Positions 9,665-29,847 of a stretch of DNA of 53,553 nucleotides are shown in pieces. The notes below the pieces were generated by a model. That model searched no databases, had not been told where the DNA came from, and worked only from the letters and a program-made list of their open reading frames with translations. The number at the start of each line of letters is the position of its first letter. Positions within the stretch are counted from its first letter, which is position 1. The DNA is from Patescibacteria group bacterium. GTDB taxonomy: Bacteria > Patescibacteriota > Minisyncoccia > Phycocordibacterales > UBA2100. The position numbers and the translations under genes were made by a program. The DNA lies in NCBI GenBank assembly GCA_021731295.1, contig JAKFXQ010000024.1:1-53553 (forward strand), read 5' to 3'.

Positions 9665-11123
<1,459 letters not shown>

Positions 11124-11737: not shown

Positions 11738-12044
11738 ACAGACCTCTCCTTTTTCGTTACTTCGTGTACACGCGGAGTCGTATCCGCCAGAACCATGAAC
11801 TGACATGGCCCGAAGAGCGATGGTAAAGGAGCGAGCATGGATGTCAACGAAACTTGCGCGGCGTGCGGTGTGTTGGTATTCTCTCGCCATGCAGTCGTCT
11901 GCACATCAGAACTATTGGTACTTTACCGGCCCCTCCTGTGGAGAGGATTGTTCTGATGCGTAAGCGCCCCTAAAGAAATCAGAGCAACCCCCTCCACCAG
12001 GAGGGGGTTTGCATTCGCAAGCTCACATGCTCGAGGAGGCTTCC

Positions 12045-12242
12045 ATGAGCACGAATAGTTCTGTGAACGTTGAGACGTCGCCTCTGGATGAGGCCTTGTT
12101 CAAAGCCATCTATGGCGAGGACAAGTACGAGACGCTGTACAAGGAGGCCGTCGCTTCCATGAAGCGCGGCCGCCACCCTCGTGTGATTCGTGACGAACTG
12201 CGCCAAGCAGTCCGTGCACGCCAATCCGGCACGAGCCAATAG
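12045..12242 (+). CDS. Small hypothetical protein
   Basis: GAGGAGG SD before MSTNSS; hairpin downstream at ~12262-12290. Confidence 0.65.
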   Translation: MSTNSSVNVETSPLDEALFKAIYGEDKYETLYKEAVASMKRGRHPRVIRDELRQAVRARQSGTSQ

Positions 12243-12302
12243 GCGCACTGCGCGCCTCTGGATGGACCCATCGCATTGCGATGGGTCCATTTGTCTTCTC
12301 CA

Positions 12303-12331
12303 TTGACAACACTTGGACGCATGGGTACAGT
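12303..12331 (+). promoter_or_regulatory. Sigma70 promoter of T-box leader
   Basis: TTGACA-17 nt-TACAGT. Confidence 0.8.
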
Positions 12332-12337
12332 CCGGAT

Positions 12338-12553
12338 AGATACGCTGATGGTTGCGATCCCTGCATAGGCAGGGACTGGGTCGCGACCGCCCTCGGGCAC
12401 AGCGATTCCTGCGTAAGTGGGAATCCGGGTTCTCCCGTAACAGAGATAACCGATGTCGCTACGGCGGAGTCGGCAAGACCAAACTAAGGTGGCACCGTGG
12501 AGAAATCCGCCCTTATTGCACGAAATCTTTTCGCGCAGTAGGGGCGGGTTTTT
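12338..12553 (+). promoter_or_regulatory. T-box riboswitch (transcription antitermination), probable Trp specifier
   Basis: Antiterminator UAAGG-UGGCACC-GUGGA-GAAA-UCCGC-CCUUA (12485-12515) overlapping terminator CCGCCCUUAUUGC...GCAGUAGGGGCGG-GUUUUU; Stem I bulge contains UGG (12377-12379); Stem II, IIA-like and III hairpins between. Confidence 0.88.
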
Positions 12554-12612
12554 GTTACAACAAGGACCTCGCAGACTGCTCTTTGGTACACGCATACACG
12601 ATGGAGGAATGC

Positions 12613-13623
12613 ATGAAGCATAGACCGCTTCAGAAACTGAGTGACTTTGTGGTTGAGGAGATGCCCGTAGTGCTCGCTCAGAGCCCTGCGCAGCTTCCCG
12701 AAGCCAGCAAACACCTTGCGGCACTGGTGCCCGAAACGGTAGTCACGGAAGCGATGCACGAGCGTCGCGGCCTAGCACTACTTGATGTGACCATGCTCGA
12801 GGCGGGCATCGTCCACTCGGGCCACACTGCCCCGCGAGAGCTCACCGCTCTTGTTGAGCGCATCGCGGGCGACGAATATCCCGTACTCACGTACGAGAAC
12901 ATCGTCCTCATCAATCCGGGCGAAGACCTGCGAACATTCACGGCCGGAGAAGTCGGTGCGGTTGAGAAATCGTTCTACCGACAGCACTGGTTCGTGGAAG
13001 ACAGGCTCCTCGCTGCGACACGCGCTGTCATATCCACGCTCGACAAACTGGATGAAGGCGATTGCGCCGGCGCCGCGATTGAGTTGCGCGCCGTCCCGCC
13101 CTGCCTCATCGCAGTGCGGAACGCGACAGACATGCTCCGTGGCATGCCGAAGGAACACTTCCAAGCGTTCCGGAAGTATCTCGGAGTCCATCCGGTCAGG
13201 GACCTCAAAGGTCCGAGCGGTGCGTTCACTGCTCGTATCCCCGCGCTGGAGTTCGCTCTGCGCGGCGATGAGCTGCCGTCTTCATATCGGCAGTACATCG
13301 AAGACAACTGGCTGTATCTGCCCCGACGCGACCGCGCTATCCTGCGCCGCATTCTCAACGAAAGCACGCAGGGACGTACGCTCGAGAAAGCGTATCGCAA
13401 GAACGGTTCGCCGAAAGAGCTGACGAGTCCGCTCAATGCGTTGAGCGACTTCTTCTTGGAGTTCCGCAAAGTGCATCTGCGCGCAGTCGGGAAGCATATT
13501 CCCGAAGCGCTCAATGATGCGACGCTCGGCACGGCCGGAGAAAAGCCCGGAACATTCTTGAGGGAGCGACTCGCTCACTCACGACGTGCGGATAAGCAAC
13601 AGGATGGAGGTACGAATGACTAG
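12613..13623 (+). CDS. PrnB/IDO/TDO-superfamily heme dioxygenase-like protein
   Basis: RTFT..E..FY..H, F..FRKYL, GPSGA, FRKVH (likely proximal His), GTAG (cf. GTGG loop); GGAGG SD. Confidence 0.75.
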   Translation: MKHRPLQKLSDFVVEEMPVVLAQSPAQLPEASKHLAALVPETVVTEAMHERRGLALLDVTMLEAGIVHSGHTAPRELTALVERIAGDEYPVLTYENIVLINPGEDLRTFTAGEVGAVEKSFYRQHWFVEDRLLAATRAVISTLDKLDEGDCAGAAIELRAVPPCLIAVRNATDMLRGMPKEHFQAFRKYLGVHPVRDLKGPSGAFTARIPALEFALRGDELPSSYRQYIEDNWLYLPRRDRAILRRILNESTQGRTLEKAYRKNGSPKELTSPLNALSDFFLEFRKVHLRAVGKHIPEALNDATLGTAGEKPGTFLRERLAHSRRADKQQDGGTND

Positions 13624-14614
13624 TCTGTACAGGCCGCAACGTCTCATCAAGGGATGCTGGCAGCTTTCCAAGGGTCATGGCCCTGCGGCCGACGGCGACA
13701 CCTTGGAAGATGTGCGTGCGTTCGCACGTGCAGGCTTCACGACGTTCGACTGCGCCGATATCTACACCGGCGCCGAAGAACTGCTCGGGCGATTGCGTTT
13801 GGAGTGCCCCACAATGACGGTGCACACCAAGTTCGTCCCCGATCTCGCGATGCTTCCTTCGATGACCCGAGGCTATGTGGAATCAATCATCGATCGATCG
13901 CTCCAACGCCTCCGGGCCGAGCGACTCGATTTGGTGCAGTTCCACTGGTGGGACTTCGCCGTCCCCCGATACGTCGAAACGGCCCAGCATCTGCAGAGAC
14001 TTGTAGAGGCAGGCAAAATCGCACGCATCGGCGTCACTAACTGCGACGTCGAGCATCTCGCGATGCTCATCGACGCAGGAGTCCCTGTTGCCGCGAACCA
14101 AGTTCAGTACTCGCTCTTGGACCAGCGGCCGCACGGACGCATGACGGAGTACTGTGCCGACCATTCGGTCGCATTGCTCTGTTACGGCGCGCTCGCTGGC
14201 GGATTCCTCTCAGAGGATTTCCTCGGCATGACACAGGCGCCCGAATCGTTGCGTAATCGATCGCTGGTGAAATACAAACTGGTTATCGATGACCGTGGCG
14301 GTTGGGACTGGTTCCAAGCACTTCTGCAGACACTCTCGCGCGTCGCACAGACGCACGACGTGCGCATTGCAGAAGTGTGCCTGAACTACACACTCGGCAT
14401 GCCCGGCGTTGCGTCCGTCATCAGCGGCGGTAGTGCACGGCGGCTCGATACGCTCGTTCGCGCAGAGAGCCTCGTGCTTAGCGCGAGCGAACGCGATGCG
14501 ATTGCGTACGCTGTCGCACAGGGCACTCCCCTCCTTGGGGATGTGTACCAGCTCGAGCGCGACCGCTCGGGAAAGCATGCCCAGATCATGCGCTACAATC
14601 AGAACATCGTGTGA
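13616..14614 (+). CDS. Aldo/keto reductase
   Basis: GCWQL, FDCADIY, HTKF, LDLVQFHWW, IGVTN, NQVQYSLLD; start overlaps upstream stop. Confidence 0.95.
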   Translation: MTSLYRPQRLIKGCWQLSKGHGPAADGDTLEDVRAFARAGFTTFDCADIYTGAEELLGRLRLECPTMTVHTKFVPDLAMLPSMTRGYVESIIDRSLQRLRAERLDLVQFHWWDFAVPRYVETAQHLQRLVEAGKIARIGVTNCDVEHLAMLIDAGVPVAANQVQYSLLDQRPHGRMTEYCADHSVALLCYGALAGGFLSEDFLGMTQAPESLRNRSLVKYKLVIDDRGGWDWFQALLQTLSRVAQTHDVRIAEVCLNYTLGMPGVASVISGGSARRLDTLVRAESLVLSASERDAIAYAVAQGTPLLGDVYQLERDRSGKHAQIMRYNQNIV

Positions 14615-14685
14615 TCATGCAGCATTTGTCGGGGGCGGCTCACGCTGCCCCCGACTCTAAGACTTATAAACGACACCATTTGCAT

Positions 14686-15036
14686 ATGAACCAAGACGAC
14701 ACGTTTGAACTGTACGATTTGCGCGTTGAAGTCGCGCGCTGTGAGGGAAAGATGGTATGCAACCACGCCATTGGTGACTATTTTGAATTGCACGGCGAGA
14801 ATCTATACATCCCTGACGGGAAACCATTTTCAATCTACGCGCTCGCCGCACTTCTGCCTCTCCTTCCTGCAAAGCAGCGTCCGACACATGTGAACGATTG
14901 GATGACTACAGACACTGACGTCGCATGCCCCGATCCGCACTGTGGTGCCATCTTTCGCATTACACGCACGGGAAAGCGCACCTTGAAACATGCCGACGTT
15001 AGTGCGGTGCCTCTGAAGATGGACGATTCGCAGTAA
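14686..15036 (+). CDS. TIGR04076-like Cys-containing protein
   Basis: FELYDLRVEV, C.H..GDYF, FSIYALAALLPLLPAKQR, ACPDPHCG. Confidence 0.8.
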   Translation: MNQDDTFELYDLRVEVARCEGKMVCNHAIGDYFELHGENLYIPDGKPFSIYALAALLPLLPAKQRPTHVNDWMTTDTDVACPDPHCGAIFRITRTGKRTLKHADVSAVPLKMDDSQ

Positions 15037-15053
15037 GTTTGCGAGCCTCTCCG

Positions 15054-15965
15054 TTATTTTTTCTTCCTCTTGTGACGAAGACGTTCTTCTACTGCCACCA
15101 AGAGTGGCGTAGCGAGCGCGATGGATGAATACGTACCGGCGGCGATACCGATGATGAGTGTGAGTGCGAAATCTTGCGTTGCTTCTGGGCCAATCAAGAA
15201 GAGTGCACCAAGAGACGCGAGTGTCGTGAGAGACGTGTTGATGGAGCGTCCGATGGTCTGGTCGACTGCACGTCCTGCAACAAGCTCGAAATCTTCAGTA
15301 CGATTCTTCTCCTGATTGATGGCAAGATTCTCACGTGTGCGGTCGAAGACCACAATGGTGTCGTGCACGGAGTACCCGAGAATGGTGAGAATTGCGGTTA
15401 CGAACAATGCGTCTACCTGTGCCCCCCACAGATATCCGAAGACAGCGAATGCGCCCAAAGGAACAATGATGTCGTGGGCCAATGTAACAATGGTGATGAA
15501 TCCGTAGACCCAGCTGGAAACAGGCTCCGATACTTTACGAAACGCAAACGCAATGAAGAGAACTATCGCAAGCACGACGAGCGTGAGCGCGAGTATCGCC
15601 TTGTTACGCAGCTCCTTGCCGATGGACGGGCCGATGTCGCTCAAGCGCTCGATGCTTCCGGTGCTTTCCCCAACACTTACGGCGCCAGCGAGAGCCTCGC
15701 GCGCATCTTCTGAAAGTGGTGCGGAGCGAATGATGTAACCCGACTCACTTTCACGGACGCTCACGCTTTCAAGTCCTGCGGCCTCCAACTGACTCGTGAG
15801 TGCGTCCTTCTCTGGTAGCGTGCCCGGATAGCGCACCTCCACAAGCGCACCTCCCGTGAAGTCAGCAGAGATGTTGAGTCCAAAGACGAACAGTGCGCCC
15901 AATGAGAGCAGCGAGAGCGCGCCTATCACCGCGAAGCAAATGTTTCTATAGTGGACGAAAATCAT
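15054..15965 (-). CDS. secF: Protein translocase subunit SecF
   Basis: DFTGG, IGPSIGKEL, GYSVHDTIVVFDRTRE, GTYSSI. Confidence 0.97.
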   Translation of the reverse strand: MIFVHYRNICFAVIGALSLLSLGALFVFGLNISADFTGGALVEVRYPGTLPEKDALTSQLEAAGLESVSVRESESGYIIRSAPLSEDAREALAGAVSVGESTGSIERLSDIGPSIGKELRNKAILALTLVVLAIVLFIAFAFRKVSEPVSSWVYGFITIVTLAHDIIVPLGAFAVFGYLWGAQVDALFVTAILTILGYSVHDTIVVFDRTRENLAINQEKNRTEDFELVAGRAVDQTIGRSINTSLTTLASLGALFLIGPEATQDFALTLIIGIAAGTYSSIALATPLLVAVEERLRHKRKKK

Positions 15966-25727: not shown

Positions 25728-25838
25728 TGTGTTGGCGCCTAGCTACTCTCGCCTTGCGACTACCATCGCCTCAACTGGGCTTAACTGCCGTGTTCGGAAA
25801 GAGAACGGGTGTACCCCCAGCGACAAAGCACCAACACA
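25728..25838 (-). rRNA. rrf: 5S rRNA
   Basis: ACACCCGTTCTCTTTCCGAACACGGCAGTTAAG, GATGGTAGT; terminal helix TGTGTTGG/CCAACACA. Confidence 0.95.
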
Positions 25839-26098
25839 CACGATTCAATAAATGTGAATACGATTGAAATGAACTTCGGCCATTGGCAACCGAAGAACGA
25901 CACGAATTAGAATACTCAGGAAAACACTCACGCGACTCCCACAATCCCAGGTCACCCGTAGCTGCGCTACGGCCTACACCTTAGGAAGTTCTGTCGATTC
26001 ATTAGTACACCTCGGCTGAGTGCATTACTGCACGTGCACCTGGTGCCTATCAACGTGGTCATCTCCCACGAATCTCAACGATTCCTTATCTTGGAGTC

Positions 26099-26131
<33 letters not shown>

Positions 26132-26298
26132 AATCCCGACATAGCTACGGGGCGGTGCTCCTGGCGGAACAGCCCCCAGACCAGCGGTCAGTTCATTCCG
26201 GTCCTCTCGTACTAGGAACGAATCTCCTCAAGAATCAACGCCTACAGCAGATTAAGACCAACCTGTCTCACGACGGTTTGAACCCAGCTCACGTACCT

Positions 26299-26332
<34 letters not shown>

Positions 26333-26606
26333 TCTCCAGCCCCGGGATGAGATGAGCCGACATCGAGGTGCCGAACATTGTCGTCGATTTGGACTCTTAG
26401 ACAATACCAGCCTGTTATCCCCAGAGTAACTTTTATCCGTTAATCTTCGGCCGCATCTAATGCGGACCGTCGGTTCACTTTGCTCAGCTTTCGCTCCTGC
26501 TCGGGATGTACCCCTTGCAGTCAAGCCACCTTTTGCCAATGCACTATCGGCACGGTTTCCATTCGCGCCTAGGTGACCATAATAGGCTCCTCCGTTACTT
26601 TTTAGG

Positions 26607-26901
26607 CACTATGTTACGCGCACACACTGTGCGGGTGCATGTATTTCTACTGCACTCTCTGCATCGCTGCAGAGGTCGGACTATATCATCGTCGCGACTG
26701 CATTTACTCAGTCGGACGGTCAGCGTGTAGTCTCTGAGGGATTTCATGTGAATGAAACTTCCCTGCTGATTGTCTGACGACATAACGGATTCGTCAGGTG
26801 TTCCAGCATATAGCTAACTTTGCTTGCCGCGATTACTCACGGCAGTCCCCCTTTTATTTTGTACACATCCCCGGATAAGAGAATGTCTTAGGCGCTACTT
26901 A
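26607..26901 (-). mobile_element. Group I intron, no ORF, in 23S after E. coli position 2262 (295 nt)
   Basis: Exon U before and terminal G; P AUGCUGGAA, Q AAUCAGCAGG, R UCAGAGACUACA, S AUGAUAUAGUCC; P3 GUUAGC/GCUGAC; IGS AGGGGGAC pairs with ligated GUCCU|CCU through a U.G wobble. Confidence 0.93.
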
Positions 26902-27231
26902 AGGACAGCGCCCCACCGAAACTGCCCACCAGGTACGGTCTCTCTAGAGGTTTATCTCAAGAGGTTAGAAGATACAATTTCTAAGAGTGGTGTTGCATTG
27001 GCGACTCCACGAGAGCCAGAGCCCTCGCTTCAAAGTCTCCCACTTACGCTACGCGGAAAAATCGTATCCCCAATACCAAGTTGCAGTAAAGCTTCTGGGG
27101 TCTTTTCGTCTAGCTGCAGGAAGGCGGCATCTTCACCGCCCTTGTATTTTCACCGGGCAAATGCTCGAGACAGTTCCCAAGTCGTTATACCATTCGTGCG
27201 CGTCTGAACTTACCAGACAAGGAATTTCGCT

Positions 27232-27409
27232 CGGGTTTCCTTAAACCAGGACCATTTCTTCATCCACCGAGGTGGAGCATGACGTATGGCCTCTCATCTG
27301 AGTCATGTTGTTCTAGGACCGTGGTACGCGTTACCGAGTACCGAGGTAGCTTCGCACTTCACTCATATAATCGTCCTAGTCCTTCCGCGCCCCATTGCTG
27401 AGACGCAGA
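27232..27409 (-). mobile_element. Miniature group I-like intron in 23S after E. coli position 1931 (178 nt), apparently lacking P4-P6
   Basis: Removal restores CCUAAGGU|AGCGAAAUUCC; terminal G; P7 GAGGCCA/UGGUCC, P3 CAUGAC/GUCAUG, P8, J8/7 AAGAAA, P9. Confidence 0.85.
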
Positions 27410-28849
27410 ACCTTAGGACGATTATAGTTATCGCCGACATTGACCGGGGCTTATATAGCGCCAGCAATATGCATTGCTGCATAAGACCGACCATACTTGA
27501 CCTTCCGGCATTGGTCAGGCATCACCCCCTATACATCCTCTTTCGAGTTCGCAGGGAGCTGTGTTTTTGGTAAACAGTCGCTTGGGAATAATTATCTGCG
27601 ACCACTCAAATAAATGAGTGGCTGGGCTTATTGCGAACGTACGCCCGCTTTCTTGCCGAGTTCCTTGAGCATCTCTCACCCGTTCGCCTTGGTCTACTCG
27701 ACCTGAACACCTGTGTCGGTTTGCGGTACGGTTCATCTAGTGTTGAAGCTTAGAAGCTTTTCTAGGAAGCGCGCTCATGTGGATTCTCTTCGACGAATCT
27801 CCGATTCTCGCCCGTACTCGGAGTAATGCTGCCCGGATTTGCCTAGGCTGCCTCCCTATACGATCGACGTAAATCCTTAATACGCCCACACTACTGCACT
27901 CCGTCACTCCATCGCACACTAAACAAGTCACGGAATATTAACCGTGAATCCATCATCTGCGGCTGTCGCCATCGACTTAGGACCGACTAACCCTTCGTTG
28001 ATCTCCATTGCGAAGGAAACCTTGTTCTTTCGGCGCCCCGGAGTCTCACCGGGGTTGCGGTTACTCGTGCCAACATTATCACTTCCCGTCGCTCCACTAT
28101 GGGTCGCCCCTTTAGCTTCATCGCAACGAGAACGCTCTCCTACCACGTCATCTATCCGAAGACAGATGACATCCGCAGTTTCGGTACTACACTTAGCCCC
28201 GATCATTTGTGGCGCAGAATCTCTGAGTGAGTGAGCTGTTACGCTTTCTTTGAATGATGGCTGCTTCTAAGCCAACATCCTCACTGTCTGTGAAATTCCA
28301 CCTCCTCGCTTGCACTTAGTGTAGATTTAGGGACCTTAACTGGCGATCTGGGCTGTTTCCCTTTTGACGTGTGGAGCTTCGCCCCCACCGTCTAACTGCC
28401 GTATTCTTGACCTCTGGTATTCGGAGTTTGATAGGTTCAGTGGCCTTGCGGCCGATCTAAACCTTCCAGTGCTCTACCCCCAGAGGGAACATACGACGCC
28501 AGCCCGAAAGCTGTTTCGGAGAGAACCAGCTATTACCAGGTTCGATAAGCTTTTCACTCCAACCCACAAGTCATCCCAAGATTTTGCACTATCTACGGGT
28601 TCGGCCCTCCCGCCGTACTTCTACGACGTTCAGCCTGCTCATGGGTAGCTCACCTGGCTTCGGGTCTAATACGTACTACTAGTCGCGCTATTCACACTCG
28701 CTTTCGCTGCGGCTCCATCCGAAAAGACTTAGCCATGCAGTACGCATTAACTCGTTGGCTCATTCTTCAATAGGCACGCCGTCGAGGACTTGCGCCCTCT
28801 CCGACTCCTTGTAGACATATGGTTTCAGGTCTATTTCACTCCCCTTACC

Positions 28850-28892
<43 letters not shown>

Positions 28893-29847
28893 ATCTCTAA
28901 AAGTATGTAGCCTTACCAGTTAGTTCTGGCGAATTCACCCGAGCTATTCGTGTCTCGAGTTACTCAAGAACTACAGCCATAGAGATGCATCGTTTTCGGA
29001 TACGGGGCTATTACCCGCTGTGGCCCGGCTTCCCAACCGGTTCTCCTAACTACGCATTTTGTAACTCTACGCCCTTACGGGCACGCTGTAGCCTTATGAC
29101 CCCCATCCCCAAAATCATCCCGCGACTTGCGTCGCGTTCTGATTTTGTGGCTGAGTTTGGGCTCCTCCCTTTTCGCTCGCCGCTACTAAGGGAATAACTA
29201 TTGTTCTCTTTTCCTCTTGGTACTGAGATGTTTCACTTCCCGAGGTGCACTCTCATTACTTTTTAGGGTTATGAGTCATACAGGTTCACTGTACGGGGTT
29301 ACCCCATTCGGAAATCTCCGGATCGAAGGTTGCTGGGCACCTCCCCGAAGCGTATCGCCGCCATGCTGCGTCCTTCATCGCCTTTTAGAGTCTAGGCATC
29401 CACCATACGCCCTTACTCAGAACTCCTGCGGCGCTAGGCCGTATCGCACCTTTCGGTGTGACCAGGGATTCTGAGAACCGCGTTTTTGTGTCTTGTATCC
29501 AACACCGCGTCAAACCGCCTATCTGAAAGATAAGTGGGTGGACCGAATCTGACTGTTGCCAGACTCGGTCCACGGGTCAAGCCGTACGCGAAACATACCT
29601 CGGCTTGACGCGGTGTTGGAATTTTTTCCTGCATCTCACGAGGCAAGACGGCCTCATGAGAAGTAATCCCTTCGGCCTCTCGGCCGACGGGTTTTTGATT
29701 CTTTTTCGTGTCGTTCTTCAGTTGTCAATGAACGTCACGCAGGGTCAAGAAAAAAGCCGCTTGGGAGCGGCGCGTTCTGCACAGACAAATGTCTAGGCTA
29801 ATCGCGCCACGTTCCGTACTGCTTTCCGAACACCATACGTAGGCCGG

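Follow-up and report, generated by a model that had tools for sequence, protein, structure and literature searches.

The textbook controls of tryptophan (Trp) supply genes are the T-box, leader-peptide attenuation and TrpR. Trp-specific T-boxes precede trpS, trp operons and the rtpA-ycbK operon of Bacillus subtilis, and attenuation of the Escherichia coli trpL type is mediated by the ribosome through a leader peptide with Trp codons. The T-boxes of actinobacterial ileS genes, in the sections of PMC7583486 that describe them, have a short Stem I without a distal platform, a Stem II and a IIA/B pseudoknot, and act translationally by sequestering the Shine-Dalgarno sequence. Here we describe a divergent T-box in a 53,553-nucleotide (nt) stretch of DNA, hereafter the window, which is contig C3 (JAKFXQ010000024.1) of a 998,354-base, 50-contig Patescibacteria assembly rated 95% complete. 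The T-box stands before three genes, encoding a protein of the IDO/TDO/PrnB superfamily, an aldo-keto reductase (AKR) and a TIGR04076 family protein. All three kinds of Trp sensor converge on this module, whose lead enzyme has a Trp-destroying fold.

There is good support for the module being switched on by scarcity of charged tRNA-Trp or of Trp. By analogy with described T-boxes, the direction of the switch would be ON when the tRNA is uncharged. Taken as a regulatory and family-level statement, with supply of Trp as the leading but unproven purpose, this is the account toward which we lean, if only slightly. The features of the unit are these (window coordinates):

12303 to 12331, plus strand: promoter-like site, TTGACA-17 nt-TACAGT, 10/12 consensus positions
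about 12343 to 12556, plus strand: divergent T-box leader (Rfam RF00230 in a permissive scan, direct reading and RNAfold)
12613 to 13623, plus strand: ORF1, 336 amino acids (aa), IDO/TDO/PrnB-superfamily protein of an unclassified clade
13616 to 14614, plus strand: ORF2, 332 aa, AKR
14628 to 14655, plus strand: GC-rich hairpin that lacks a U-run and lies between ORF2 and ORF3, seen in the sequence and not reported by the terminator scan
14686 to 15036, plus strand: ORF3, 116 aa, TIGR04076 family, the most conserved member of the module

A sequence-only reading of this stretch had named a promoter, a T-box with the bulge UGGCACC, an overlapping terminator and three co-oriented genes, the first two overlapping, and all of these are present. 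The promoter-like site is the sole sigma-70-like site in 11900-15400; shuffled sequences average 1.4, a count so close to expectation that the site taken alone is weak evidence. About 280 nt of leader separate it from ORF1, whose ATG has GGAGG 5 nt before it and whose homologues begin at the same MK.RPL. The start of ORF2 overlaps the end of ORF1 by 8 nt. T-box control had been claimed for all three genes and holds up for ORF1 and ORF2; ORF3 probably lies on the same T-box-controlled transcript, but its position behind the hairpin at 14628-14655 counts against this, and it may be transcribed separately.

A divergent T-box leader

Judged from its sequence, the 3' half of the leader, comprising discriminator and terminator, is unmistakable in its T-box character, and we are highly confident that the leader as a whole is a real T-box. 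Its parts are as follows:

12343 to 12404, plus strand: short Stem I; minimum free energy (MFE) fold from RNAfold, a three-way junction with base helix CGCUG/CAGCG (12343-12347/12400-12404)
12377 to 12379, plus strand: proposed specifier UGG (Trp) in the predicted fold, with the purine G12380 next and the lower helix after it
12404 to 12425, plus strand: Stem II with a GUAA loop (cmscan alignment to RF00230 and MFE)
12427 to 12441, plus strand: IIA hairpin with F-box-like CCGUAAC (cmscan alignment to RF00230 and MFE)
12450 to 12473, plus strand: Stem III-like hairpin CCGAU-G-UCGC-UACG-GCGG-A-GUCGG (MFE)
12485 to 12515, plus strand: antiterminator (T-box discriminator), helix A1, 7-nt bulge and helix A2 (direct reading and cmscan)
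12506 to 12556, plus strand: intrinsic terminator, stem 12506-12548 and then UUUUUGUU at 12549-12556

The antiterminator consists of the 5' strand of A1 (AAGG, 12486-12489), the bulge UGGCACC (12490-12496), helix A2 (GUGGA-GAAA-UCCGC, 12497-12510) and the 3' strand of A1 (CCUU, 12511-12514). This bulge has the 7-nt UGGN-ACC form that a T-box carries between A1 and A2. The terminator stem reuses the A2 and A1 3' strands, shares 12506-12515 with the antiterminator and has a folding energy of -29.9 kcal/mol, compared with -7.3 when the antiterminator is taken in isolation. When the window discriminator was aligned with six T-box discriminators from related genomes (n=7), 91.9% of the cells in helices A1 and A2 were paired and 5/9 pairs had changed on both sides; the covariation score was reached by 0/500 shuffles, and slid registers paired at 27-58%.

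Stem I has a lower helix (12350-12357/12381-12388), a 7-bp upper hairpin with an AUAG loop (12358-12375), a 3' bulge CUGGG (12376-12380) and a small side hairpin (12389-12398) in the RNAfold structure. The segment 12404-12441, including CCGUAA, is aligned by cmscan with low posterior to the S-turn of Stem II and to the IIA/B pseudoknot with its F-box. An element related to the Stem III-like hairpin, GUGUCG...ACGGAG, is present in three T-box loci of other genomes (L005, L015 and L019). The leader resembles the short ileS class in lacking a distal platform and in having a predicted Stem II, an F-box-like IIA/B region and a predicted Stem III before the discriminator. It differs from that class in its intrinsic terminator, in the 7-bp hairpin above the specifier and in the extra side hairpin, and neither a K-turn nor an S-turn is recognizable in it by eye.

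A gathering-threshold Rfam scan of the window reported no T-box. The Infernal comparison proposed in the sequence-only reading does yield a match to RF00230 at 12363-12517, the only T-box-like match in the whole genome, with 28.2 bits and an E value of 2e-4 in a permissive search of 551 nt (8.6e-5 in a whole-genome search); the score falls short of the cut-off. Among 151 sampled genomes of the phylum, RF00230 was matched at E<=1e-3 in 51 and above the cut-off in only 5 of those 51. Sub-threshold scores are therefore normal in this phylum, since 46/51 matching genomes have none over the cut-off.

Several properties of the leader weigh against a working switch and would suit a decaying relic with no tRNA response, its genes being constitutive or silent. 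The RF00230 score is 65 bits under the gathering cut-off of 93. The distal platform of Stem I (an AG bulge with a distal loop, which contact the tRNA elbow) is absent, and no K-turn consensus is visible at the Stem I base, where the predicted fold has a three-way junction in its place; GCUGAUGG looks like the 5' half of that consensus, and its GA partner on the 3' side was not seen. The first A2 pair, G12497-C12510, is Watson-Crick and the next, U12498-G12509, is a wobble, whereas the passage on this element in PMC7583486 describes a G-U wobble at the base of A2 as the aminoacyl sensor. The genome's own trpS (C4:14485-15417) lies about 25 nt behind another gene and has no leader. Decay is hard to reconcile with A1, A2 and the terminator, whose pairing partners are all intact, with a UGGC that matches G73, and with a short architecture that recurs in L005, L015 and L019 before sensible genes; most T-box matches in the phylum score equally low. 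A relic is the least probable of the alternatives that we weighed.

Which tRNA the T-box reads

The codon occupies positions 2-4 counted from the end of the specifier bulge, by the rule set out in the TBDB paper (PMC7778990). Applied to the bulge CUGGG, this yields UGG, with G as the next base. In the genome's tRNA-Trp the discriminator is G73, a pairing partner for the C of UGGC, as the sequence-only reading had proposed. Of the bulge frames, UGG alone is compatible with UGGC, because only the tRNA-Trp discriminator pairs: CUG and GGG name tRNA-Leu(CAG) and tRNA-Gly(CCC), both A73 in this genome. As tRNA-Trp carries G73 in 5/5 genomes checked, covariation between UGGN and the discriminator across these genomes is uninformative.

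A different tRNA could be read if Stem I were formed elsewhere. The cmscan alignment placed Stem I on another hairpin, GGG-UCGCGACCG-CCC at 12378-12392, which would present ACC (then G) or GAC (then C) and not UGG, and this counts against the Trp assignment. On this alternative the T-box would read tRNA-Asp most likely (GAC), or tRNA-Thr (ACC), and the module would be unrelated to Trp. The genome's tRNA-Asp has G73, fitting UGGC, and related short T-boxes have their codon in a terminal loop with a purine after it, as in L019 (CCC-G). The best fold containing this hairpin has -25.7 kcal/mol against -36.0 for the MFE structure, 10.3 worse; GAC is followed by C and not by a purine, and ACC-G requires tRNA-Thr, which is U73 in this genome. 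Across the nine loci compared below there is no hint of Asp or Thr, and Trp-linked elements occur in eight. Folding alone leaves the specificity ambiguous, and it is the genomic context that decides for Trp; tRNA-Asp, which the sequence-only reading had also named, is excluded only by context and folding energy. An Asp or Thr switch is in our view quite improbable, and Trp specificity is likely, with UGG and a purine in the bulge, G73, and the module elsewhere under Trp sensors or near trpS making it the best supported choice, as first suggested.

In its elements the leader is close to known Trp T-boxes, namely UGG with a purine, a UGGN bulge facing the NCCA of tRNA-Trp (G73), UGGU variants, and competition between terminator and antiterminator, and a related element in L005 precedes that genome's sole trpS. 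It is unlike them in controlling an IDO-like oxygenase and a reductase pair instead of a synthetase, biosynthesis or transporter gene, and in scoring far under the Rfam cut-off.

A motif shared by the window (12350-12354) and the L004 and L005 loops, GGUUG, was considered as a UUG or GUU specifier or a remnant of the distal loop and rejected, since it is paired in the window, tRNA-Leu is A73 in this genome and the context is that of Trp. Leu and Val tRNAs generally carry A73. Elsewhere in the tRNA set, all three tRNA-Gly genes (C2:18215-18288, C13:24917-24988 and C2:20179-20250) carry A73, the usual bacterial tRNA-Gly discriminator being U73, and ARAGORN predicts a tRNA-Ile with the anticodon UAU (C7:32409-32482).

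The same genes lie under Trp-linked controls in other genomes

Scans of genomes and metagenomes gave ten loci, which reduce to eight distinct ones because L004, L010 and L011 share one sequence; counts out of nine refer to the window plus these eight, L002-L009. Their gene orders, from tblastn with the three window proteins, are:

L002: ORF1 homologue, AKR, TIGR04076; the closest relative of the window operon
L003: TIGR04076, ORF1 homologue, AKR
L004: TIGR04076, AKR, ORF1 homologue
L005 and L006: ORF1 homologue, TIGR04076, AKR
L007: ORF1 homologue, AKR, to the contig end; only 10 nt of upstream sequence
L008: TIGR04076, ORF1 homologue, to the contig end
L009: ORF1 homologue alone

The AKR gene lies beside the ORF1 homologue in 6/8 of these loci and TIGR04076 likewise in 6/8, in four different orders; those that lack one or the other are the two contig-end loci and L009. 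Loci with the three genes together are mostly from ultra-small genomes. Predicted fusions join an IDO-like domain to an AKR (P0209, 690 aa) and TIGR04076 to an AKR (P0323 and P0399), and, as read from sequence, they argue for joint function of the module proteins. The module is rare in the phylum: the ORF1 family was found in 2/401 sampled genomes and TIGR04076 in 4/401, the source genome included. One further locus of the phylum, L035, has a TIGR04076 gene that is not close to ORF3 and has neither an AKR nor an IDO-like neighbor.

A Trp-linked control element is present in 8/9 loci, as a T-box in three, a leader peptide in three and a TrpR-family gene in two. In L005 the T-box (RF00230, 26.7 bits) lies between the ORF1 homologue and a TIGR04076-AKR-trpS unit, whose trpS is the only TIGR00233 match over the cut-off in its genome. 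In L004 it precedes the whole module, with the same CAAGG-UGGUACC-GCC discriminator as in L005 and a terminator. UGG occurs in an unpaired part of the short Stem I of both, and the bulge UGGU stands opposite a tRNA-Trp with G73; a UGGU G:U wobble is given for 46% of Trp T-boxes in the relevant part of PMC7778990. An Rfam scan of six related loci together reported no T-box, and the L005 element surfaced in per-genome and local searches. A discriminator model (R1) found no T-box in L002, L003 or L006-L009; it matches only its own training sequences, and so provides evidence of absence in these loci and no independent support for L004.

Leader open reading frames rich in Trp codons take the place of the T-box in three loci: L002 (...MLNWWWTLNFFSQSPLLSIR, WWW), L006 (MTSKRQFNPSYAWWWSFT, WWW) and L009 (...MINKTWWNARPLAFALFC, WW), each followed by an intrinsic terminator and then by module genes. 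This is the trpL-like arrangement, and the window itself lacks it. TGGTGGTGG occurs only at the L002 and L006 sites in 45,954 nt of the eight loci, both strands included, and 21 times in the 1-Mb genome. By eye, and in L002 only, CAAAGUCC has two possible pairing partners, the GGACUUUG that comes just behind the Trp codons and a second copy of GGACUUUG within the terminator, so that the L002 leader would follow classical attenuator logic. In L003 and L008 a TrpR-family gene lies directly upstream (PF01371, 6.6e-19 and 5.5e-18). In NCBIfam one of these neighbors is nearer TrpR, under the cut-off, and the TrpR-family genes appear to be the weakest of the three lines of Trp control.

Other genes point the same way. 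trpS is adjacent to the module in L003, L004 and L005. Immediately upstream of the L004 T-box, a gene (1610-2350) has a chorismate mutase domain (PF01817, 1e-10; TIGR01802, 101.6 bits, under the cut-off), which may be another aromatic amino-acid link in a small genome.

Parts of this survey tell against a common Trp control. A T-box is present in only 3/9 loci, and neither Rfam nor model R1 finds one in the leader of L002. The Stem I loops of L004 and L005 also hold GGU, GUU and UUG. The other TrpR-family neighbor reaches YerC/YecD, a subfamily of unknown function, and each fusion is predicted from a single contig and may result from merged gene calls. Conservation of the T-box with these genes, which the sequence-only reading had put forward as a check, is therefore partial: the T-box itself is kept in three loci and another Trp element takes its place in five more, including a Trp-codon leader peptide in the closest relative. 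With a Trp-linked element in eight of nine loci, the outcome that would have undone that reading, a T-box left as a relic and not conserved with these genes, did not materialize.

Further structures were seen upstream of these and other genes. Between the TrpR-family gene and the module in L003 (3481-3593) and L008 (1070-1193) are two successive CCUCC/GGAGG hairpins with alternative pairing possible; the second is followed by a U-run and may be an attenuator or merely the terminator of the regulator gene. Upstream of the ORF1 homologue in L005 (3890-3950) there is a terminator-like hairpin, UCGCC...GGGCGA with UUUUUG, that has UGGUGG in its 3' arm, and no convincing start codon of a leader peptide was found in this interval. 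The short T-box of L019 (1501-1702) has the Stem I loop UUUCCCG (CCC, Pro, then a purine) and a UGGU bulge, and the gene after it (1783-2838, G404:C1) belongs to the ornithine cyclodeaminase/mu-crystallin family (PF02423, 6.1e-87); the arrangement suggests a switch that senses proline and controls a gene for one-step proline synthesis. Full-length T-boxes of about 75 bits with an apparent UUU (Phe) specifier precede paralogous 322-328-aa proteins without a Pfam family in L014 and L017 (G404:C55 and C64). A short UGGC T-box lies before a GNAT acetyltransferase gene in L015 (G402).

A probable oxygenase-fold protein and a proposed reductase pair

ORF1 had been read as PrnB/IDO-like, and its membership of the superfamily is borne out. 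By Pfam it reaches 20.3 bits for IDO against a cut-off of 26, with no TDO or PrnB match, and among 37 members of its family 7 match IDO, 3 TDO and 0 PrnB at E<=0.01. A profile of 37 homologues has human IDO1 as its best match in the PDB (6cxu, 1.5e-7), followed by TDO at 9.4e-5 to 7e-4. In this alignment, numbered by the homologue P0001, H292 (at least 90% conserved) falls on H346 of IDO1 in the heme-ligand region, R191 on R231 and F125/Y126 on F163/F164. The invariant H129 aligns with S167 of IDO1, where the 6cxu chain has His. Aligned motifs are FY..H..E with FF..S..E of IDO1, F..FR.YL with FFSVLRIYL and FR..H with LRSYH; the second stretch of the alignment is weak by itself. The family has a GTxGE loop, which resembles the GTGG loop of IDO and TDO.

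In the Atlas of predicted structures, the model of homologue P0034 (33-34% identical to ORF1; pTM 0.82) superposes on IDO clusters with a TM score of 0.79 and on PrnB clusters with 0.76, over 324-328 residues. The comparison with IDO and PrnB thus gives a profile match to IDO and, by way of the homologue model, a structural match to both, and ORF1 itself reaches no Pfam cut-off. ORF1 shares with IDO, TDO and PrnB the full-length fold match of the homologue model, the proximal heme-ligand His, the substrate Arg, the FF/FY motif and the GTxGE loop, together with a TDO-like distal His. It stands apart from them in falling under all Pfam cut-offs, in the invariant motifs of its own clade (LTYEE and KGPSGAFTA), in its tie to an AKR and TIGR04076, and in that the clade is predicted to be induced, not repressed, by Trp shortage. 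We consider it likely that ORF1 has the heme oxygenase fold, and it would then bind heme. The family is sizable, with 40 word-indexed relatives and, in an exhaustive profile search, 707, 403 and 260 cluster representatives at E<=1e-3, 1e-10 and 1e-30.

The two other assignments of the sequence-only reading were correct. ORF2 matches the AKR family PF00248 with 210.1 bits (4.9e-62) over profile positions 1-286 of 291. The catalytic tetrad of AKRs is Asp-Tyr-Lys-His, and the candidate motifs FDCADIY, HTK and QFHW of ORF2, as read by eye, occur at the spacing expected of it. The best match in the PDB is MtmW (8.6e-20), with no close characterized relative. ORF3 matches TIGR04076 with 66.8 bits against a cut-off of 33, and its database relatives form 7,835 clusters at E<=1e-5, the top 119 of which, besides its own cluster, are 69-80% identical. 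Invariants of the family are an LPAKQR motif and several Asp. A metal protein with four Cys was considered for TIGR04076 and rejected, as only two Cys are at least 90% conserved. No solved relative of ORF3 was found by sequence, and the literature search found no paper on the function of TIGR04076, only mentions of the family in passing.

The TIGR04076-AKR pair is, by its distribution, older and wider than the three-gene module. tblastn found relatives of ORF3 (42-66% identity) on 24 plasmid records from Alphaproteobacteria, haloarchaea and a Rhodococcus. An annotated aldo/keto reductase immediately follows the TIGR04076 gene in 7/8 plasmid loci inspected, the exception being Rhodococcus, where flavin oxidoreductases follow. 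ORF2 is 46-51% identical to the plasmid AKRs in the four loci compared, which equals its closeness to the AKRs of related ultra-small genomes, and we take it to be an ortholog of the AKRs that stand behind TIGR04076 genes in other phyla. Liv-type amino-acid ABC importer genes occur in 6 of the 7 TIGR04076-AKR plasmid loci and a GntR regulator in five; the haloarchaeal locus adjoins genes for a peptide transporter, a gamma-glutamyltransferase and an M20 hydrolase. Such neighborhoods would mark the import and conversion of a nutrient resembling an amino acid. The pair has thousands of highly conserved members in Bacteria and Archaea and no known role.

In five alphaproteobacterial plasmid loci (L037, L040, L042, L043 and L044) a second, longer AKR (about 480-490 aa) lies beside the ABC importer genes; that of L037 and L040, the two compared, is 39-40% identical to ORF2. 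A DUF4440 or hypothetical gene of 140-190 aa often stands behind the first AKR in these loci. On a haloarchaeal plasmid (L039) the TIGR04076 protein carries the electronic GO annotation S-adenosylmethionine metabolic process, for which no explanation was found.

What the module may do

We propose that, while the leader is transcribed, the anticodon CCA of tRNA-Trp pairs with UGG at 12377-12379, and that the 3' GCCA of the uncharged tRNA would pair with the bulge UGGC and stabilize the antiterminator. With the antiterminator held, the terminator at 12506-12556 would not form, and ORF1 and ORF2, probably with ORF3, would be transcribed. The module would thus be made under Trp shortage in a cell unable to make Trp. 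Searches of the genome did not find trpA or trpB, in keeping with the auxotrophy suspected earlier; positive controls responded in this and the other gene searches reported here, and these negatives mean not found in a 95% complete assembly, which is not proof of absence. ORF1 would be a heme-dependent oxygenase that binds a Trp-like alpha-amino acid, and ORF2 and ORF3 the two parts of an NAD(P)H-dependent reductase common in other genomes. Oxidation by ORF1 and then reduction by ORF2 and ORF3 would turn an external Trp-related compound, for example a D-form, modified or oxidized one, into usable L-Trp.

We lean to supply because all three types of control are known for supply genes, because the TIGR04076-AKR reductase core sits with importers elsewhere, and because net isomerizations pair an oxidant with an NAD(P)H reductase in this way. 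DepA and DepB, which act on deoxynivalenol (DON), epimerize by oxidation followed by AKR reduction. The logic proposed for the module, an oxidizing enzyme with an AKR and a net isomerization, is alike, and DepB and a DON 3-epimerase are among the PDB matches of ORF2. Its similarity to DepB is family-level only (E 1.9e-15), and the oxidant here, in contrast to that system, would be a heme protein. That the module supplies Trp we regard as possible, on balance doubtful. The reading finds its difficulties in the chemistry. To our knowledge, all characterized reactions of the IDO/TDO/PrnB fold consume or rearrange the indole ring, and none yields tryptophan. ALAD and ferrochelatase were not found in the assembly, so that any heme must be external.

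As no IDO-fold enzyme is known to produce tryptophan, clearance of analogues stays alive as a rival to supply. The same Trp switch would here serve an ORF1 that destroys Trp analogues or oxidized Trp competing for the Trp-tRNA synthetase (TrpRS), with ORF2 and ORF3 reducing the carbonyl product. Analogue pressure or low Trp would leave tRNA-Trp uncharged and trigger the clean-up, together with trpS where it is in the operon. TrpRS has no editing domain, and ring-opening or rearranging oxidation is what the IDO fold, to which the ORF1 family is assigned, is known for. Such oxidation yields a carbonyl that an AKR can reduce, and co-transcription of the sole trpS in L003 and L005 fits a role in the quality of tRNA-Trp charging. 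The controls, on the other hand, are those of supply genes and not of detoxification, the neighborhood of the pair elsewhere, with importers and GntR regulators, resembles nutrient use, and an enzyme with the Trp-binding Arg and the GTxGE loop still in place would need to spare Trp. We judge clearance unlikely, the more so than supply itself.

A plainer possibility would make ORF1 an ordinary tryptophan 2,3-dioxygenase at the start of Trp breakdown (kynurenine route, NAD or a secreted signal), its Trp control being incidental or reversed. It shares with TDO the distal His, Arg and proximal His, three of the 37 family members reach Pfam TDO, and some Atlas clusters of PrnB/IDO-like proteins are fused to kynureninase-type domains. 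Kynureninase, cyclase-type formamidase and nadC were not found in the genome, and the layout of terminator and antiterminator is the canonical one, ON when uncharged. Chance is an unlikely explanation for three independent kinds of low-Trp-ON control in relatives, and an auxotroph burning scarce Trp gains no evident benefit. An ordinary kynurenine pathway is improbable, given that its later genes did not turn up in the genome and that such control would defeat its own end.

Returning to supply, its fullest form would make the three genes a hitherto unknown route to L-Trp from a compound scavenged from the surroundings or a host, in ultra-small bacteria auxotrophic for both Trp and heme: an IDO-fold oxidation would spare the indole ring, and TIGR04076-AKR with NAD(P)H would complete the conversion. 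By extension the pair would be a general amino-acid-salvage reductase near importers in Proteobacteria and haloarchaea. We offer this form as speculative, and somewhat less likely than the supply role alone. If true, it would explain how some ultra-small symbiotic bacteria cope with the costliest amino acid and offer a first clue to what the TIGR04076-AKR pair does. Should the module either supply or protect the Trp pool, it would add a new reaction type to the IDO/TDO/PrnB superfamily. Our literature search found no paper linking a T-box with Patescibacteria, PrnB or Trp dioxygenase, the supplementary tables of TBDB, which may list cases, lying outside it; the searched literature on the candidate phyla radiation and Saccharibacteria contained no T-box term.

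Neighboring features of the window

The three-gene unit lies between a 16S gene (9665-11123, minus strand) and a minus-strand secD/secF-like pair. Immediately upstream are:

12045 to 12242: open reading frame of 65 aa, upstream neighbor of the T-box unit, with its own hairpin terminator
12263 to 12299, plus strand: hairpin with a U-rich tail, read from the sequence, which terminates the 65-aa open reading frame and sets it apart from the T-box unit

A permissive Rfam scan also gave a weak, terminator-shaped ncr1241-like match at 12237-12294. Four DNA runs of one drinking water metagenome study contain 57-72% of sampled words of this DNA; as they may include the source sample, no conclusion is drawn from this. 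The search of sequencing runs listed no RNA run. The rRNA genes are unlinked, the 16S gene lying 14.6 kb from a 23S-5S pair (25730-29426) with the T-box operon and other genes between them, and the 23S gene contains a group I intron at 26657-26891 (64 bits, over the Rfam cut-off).

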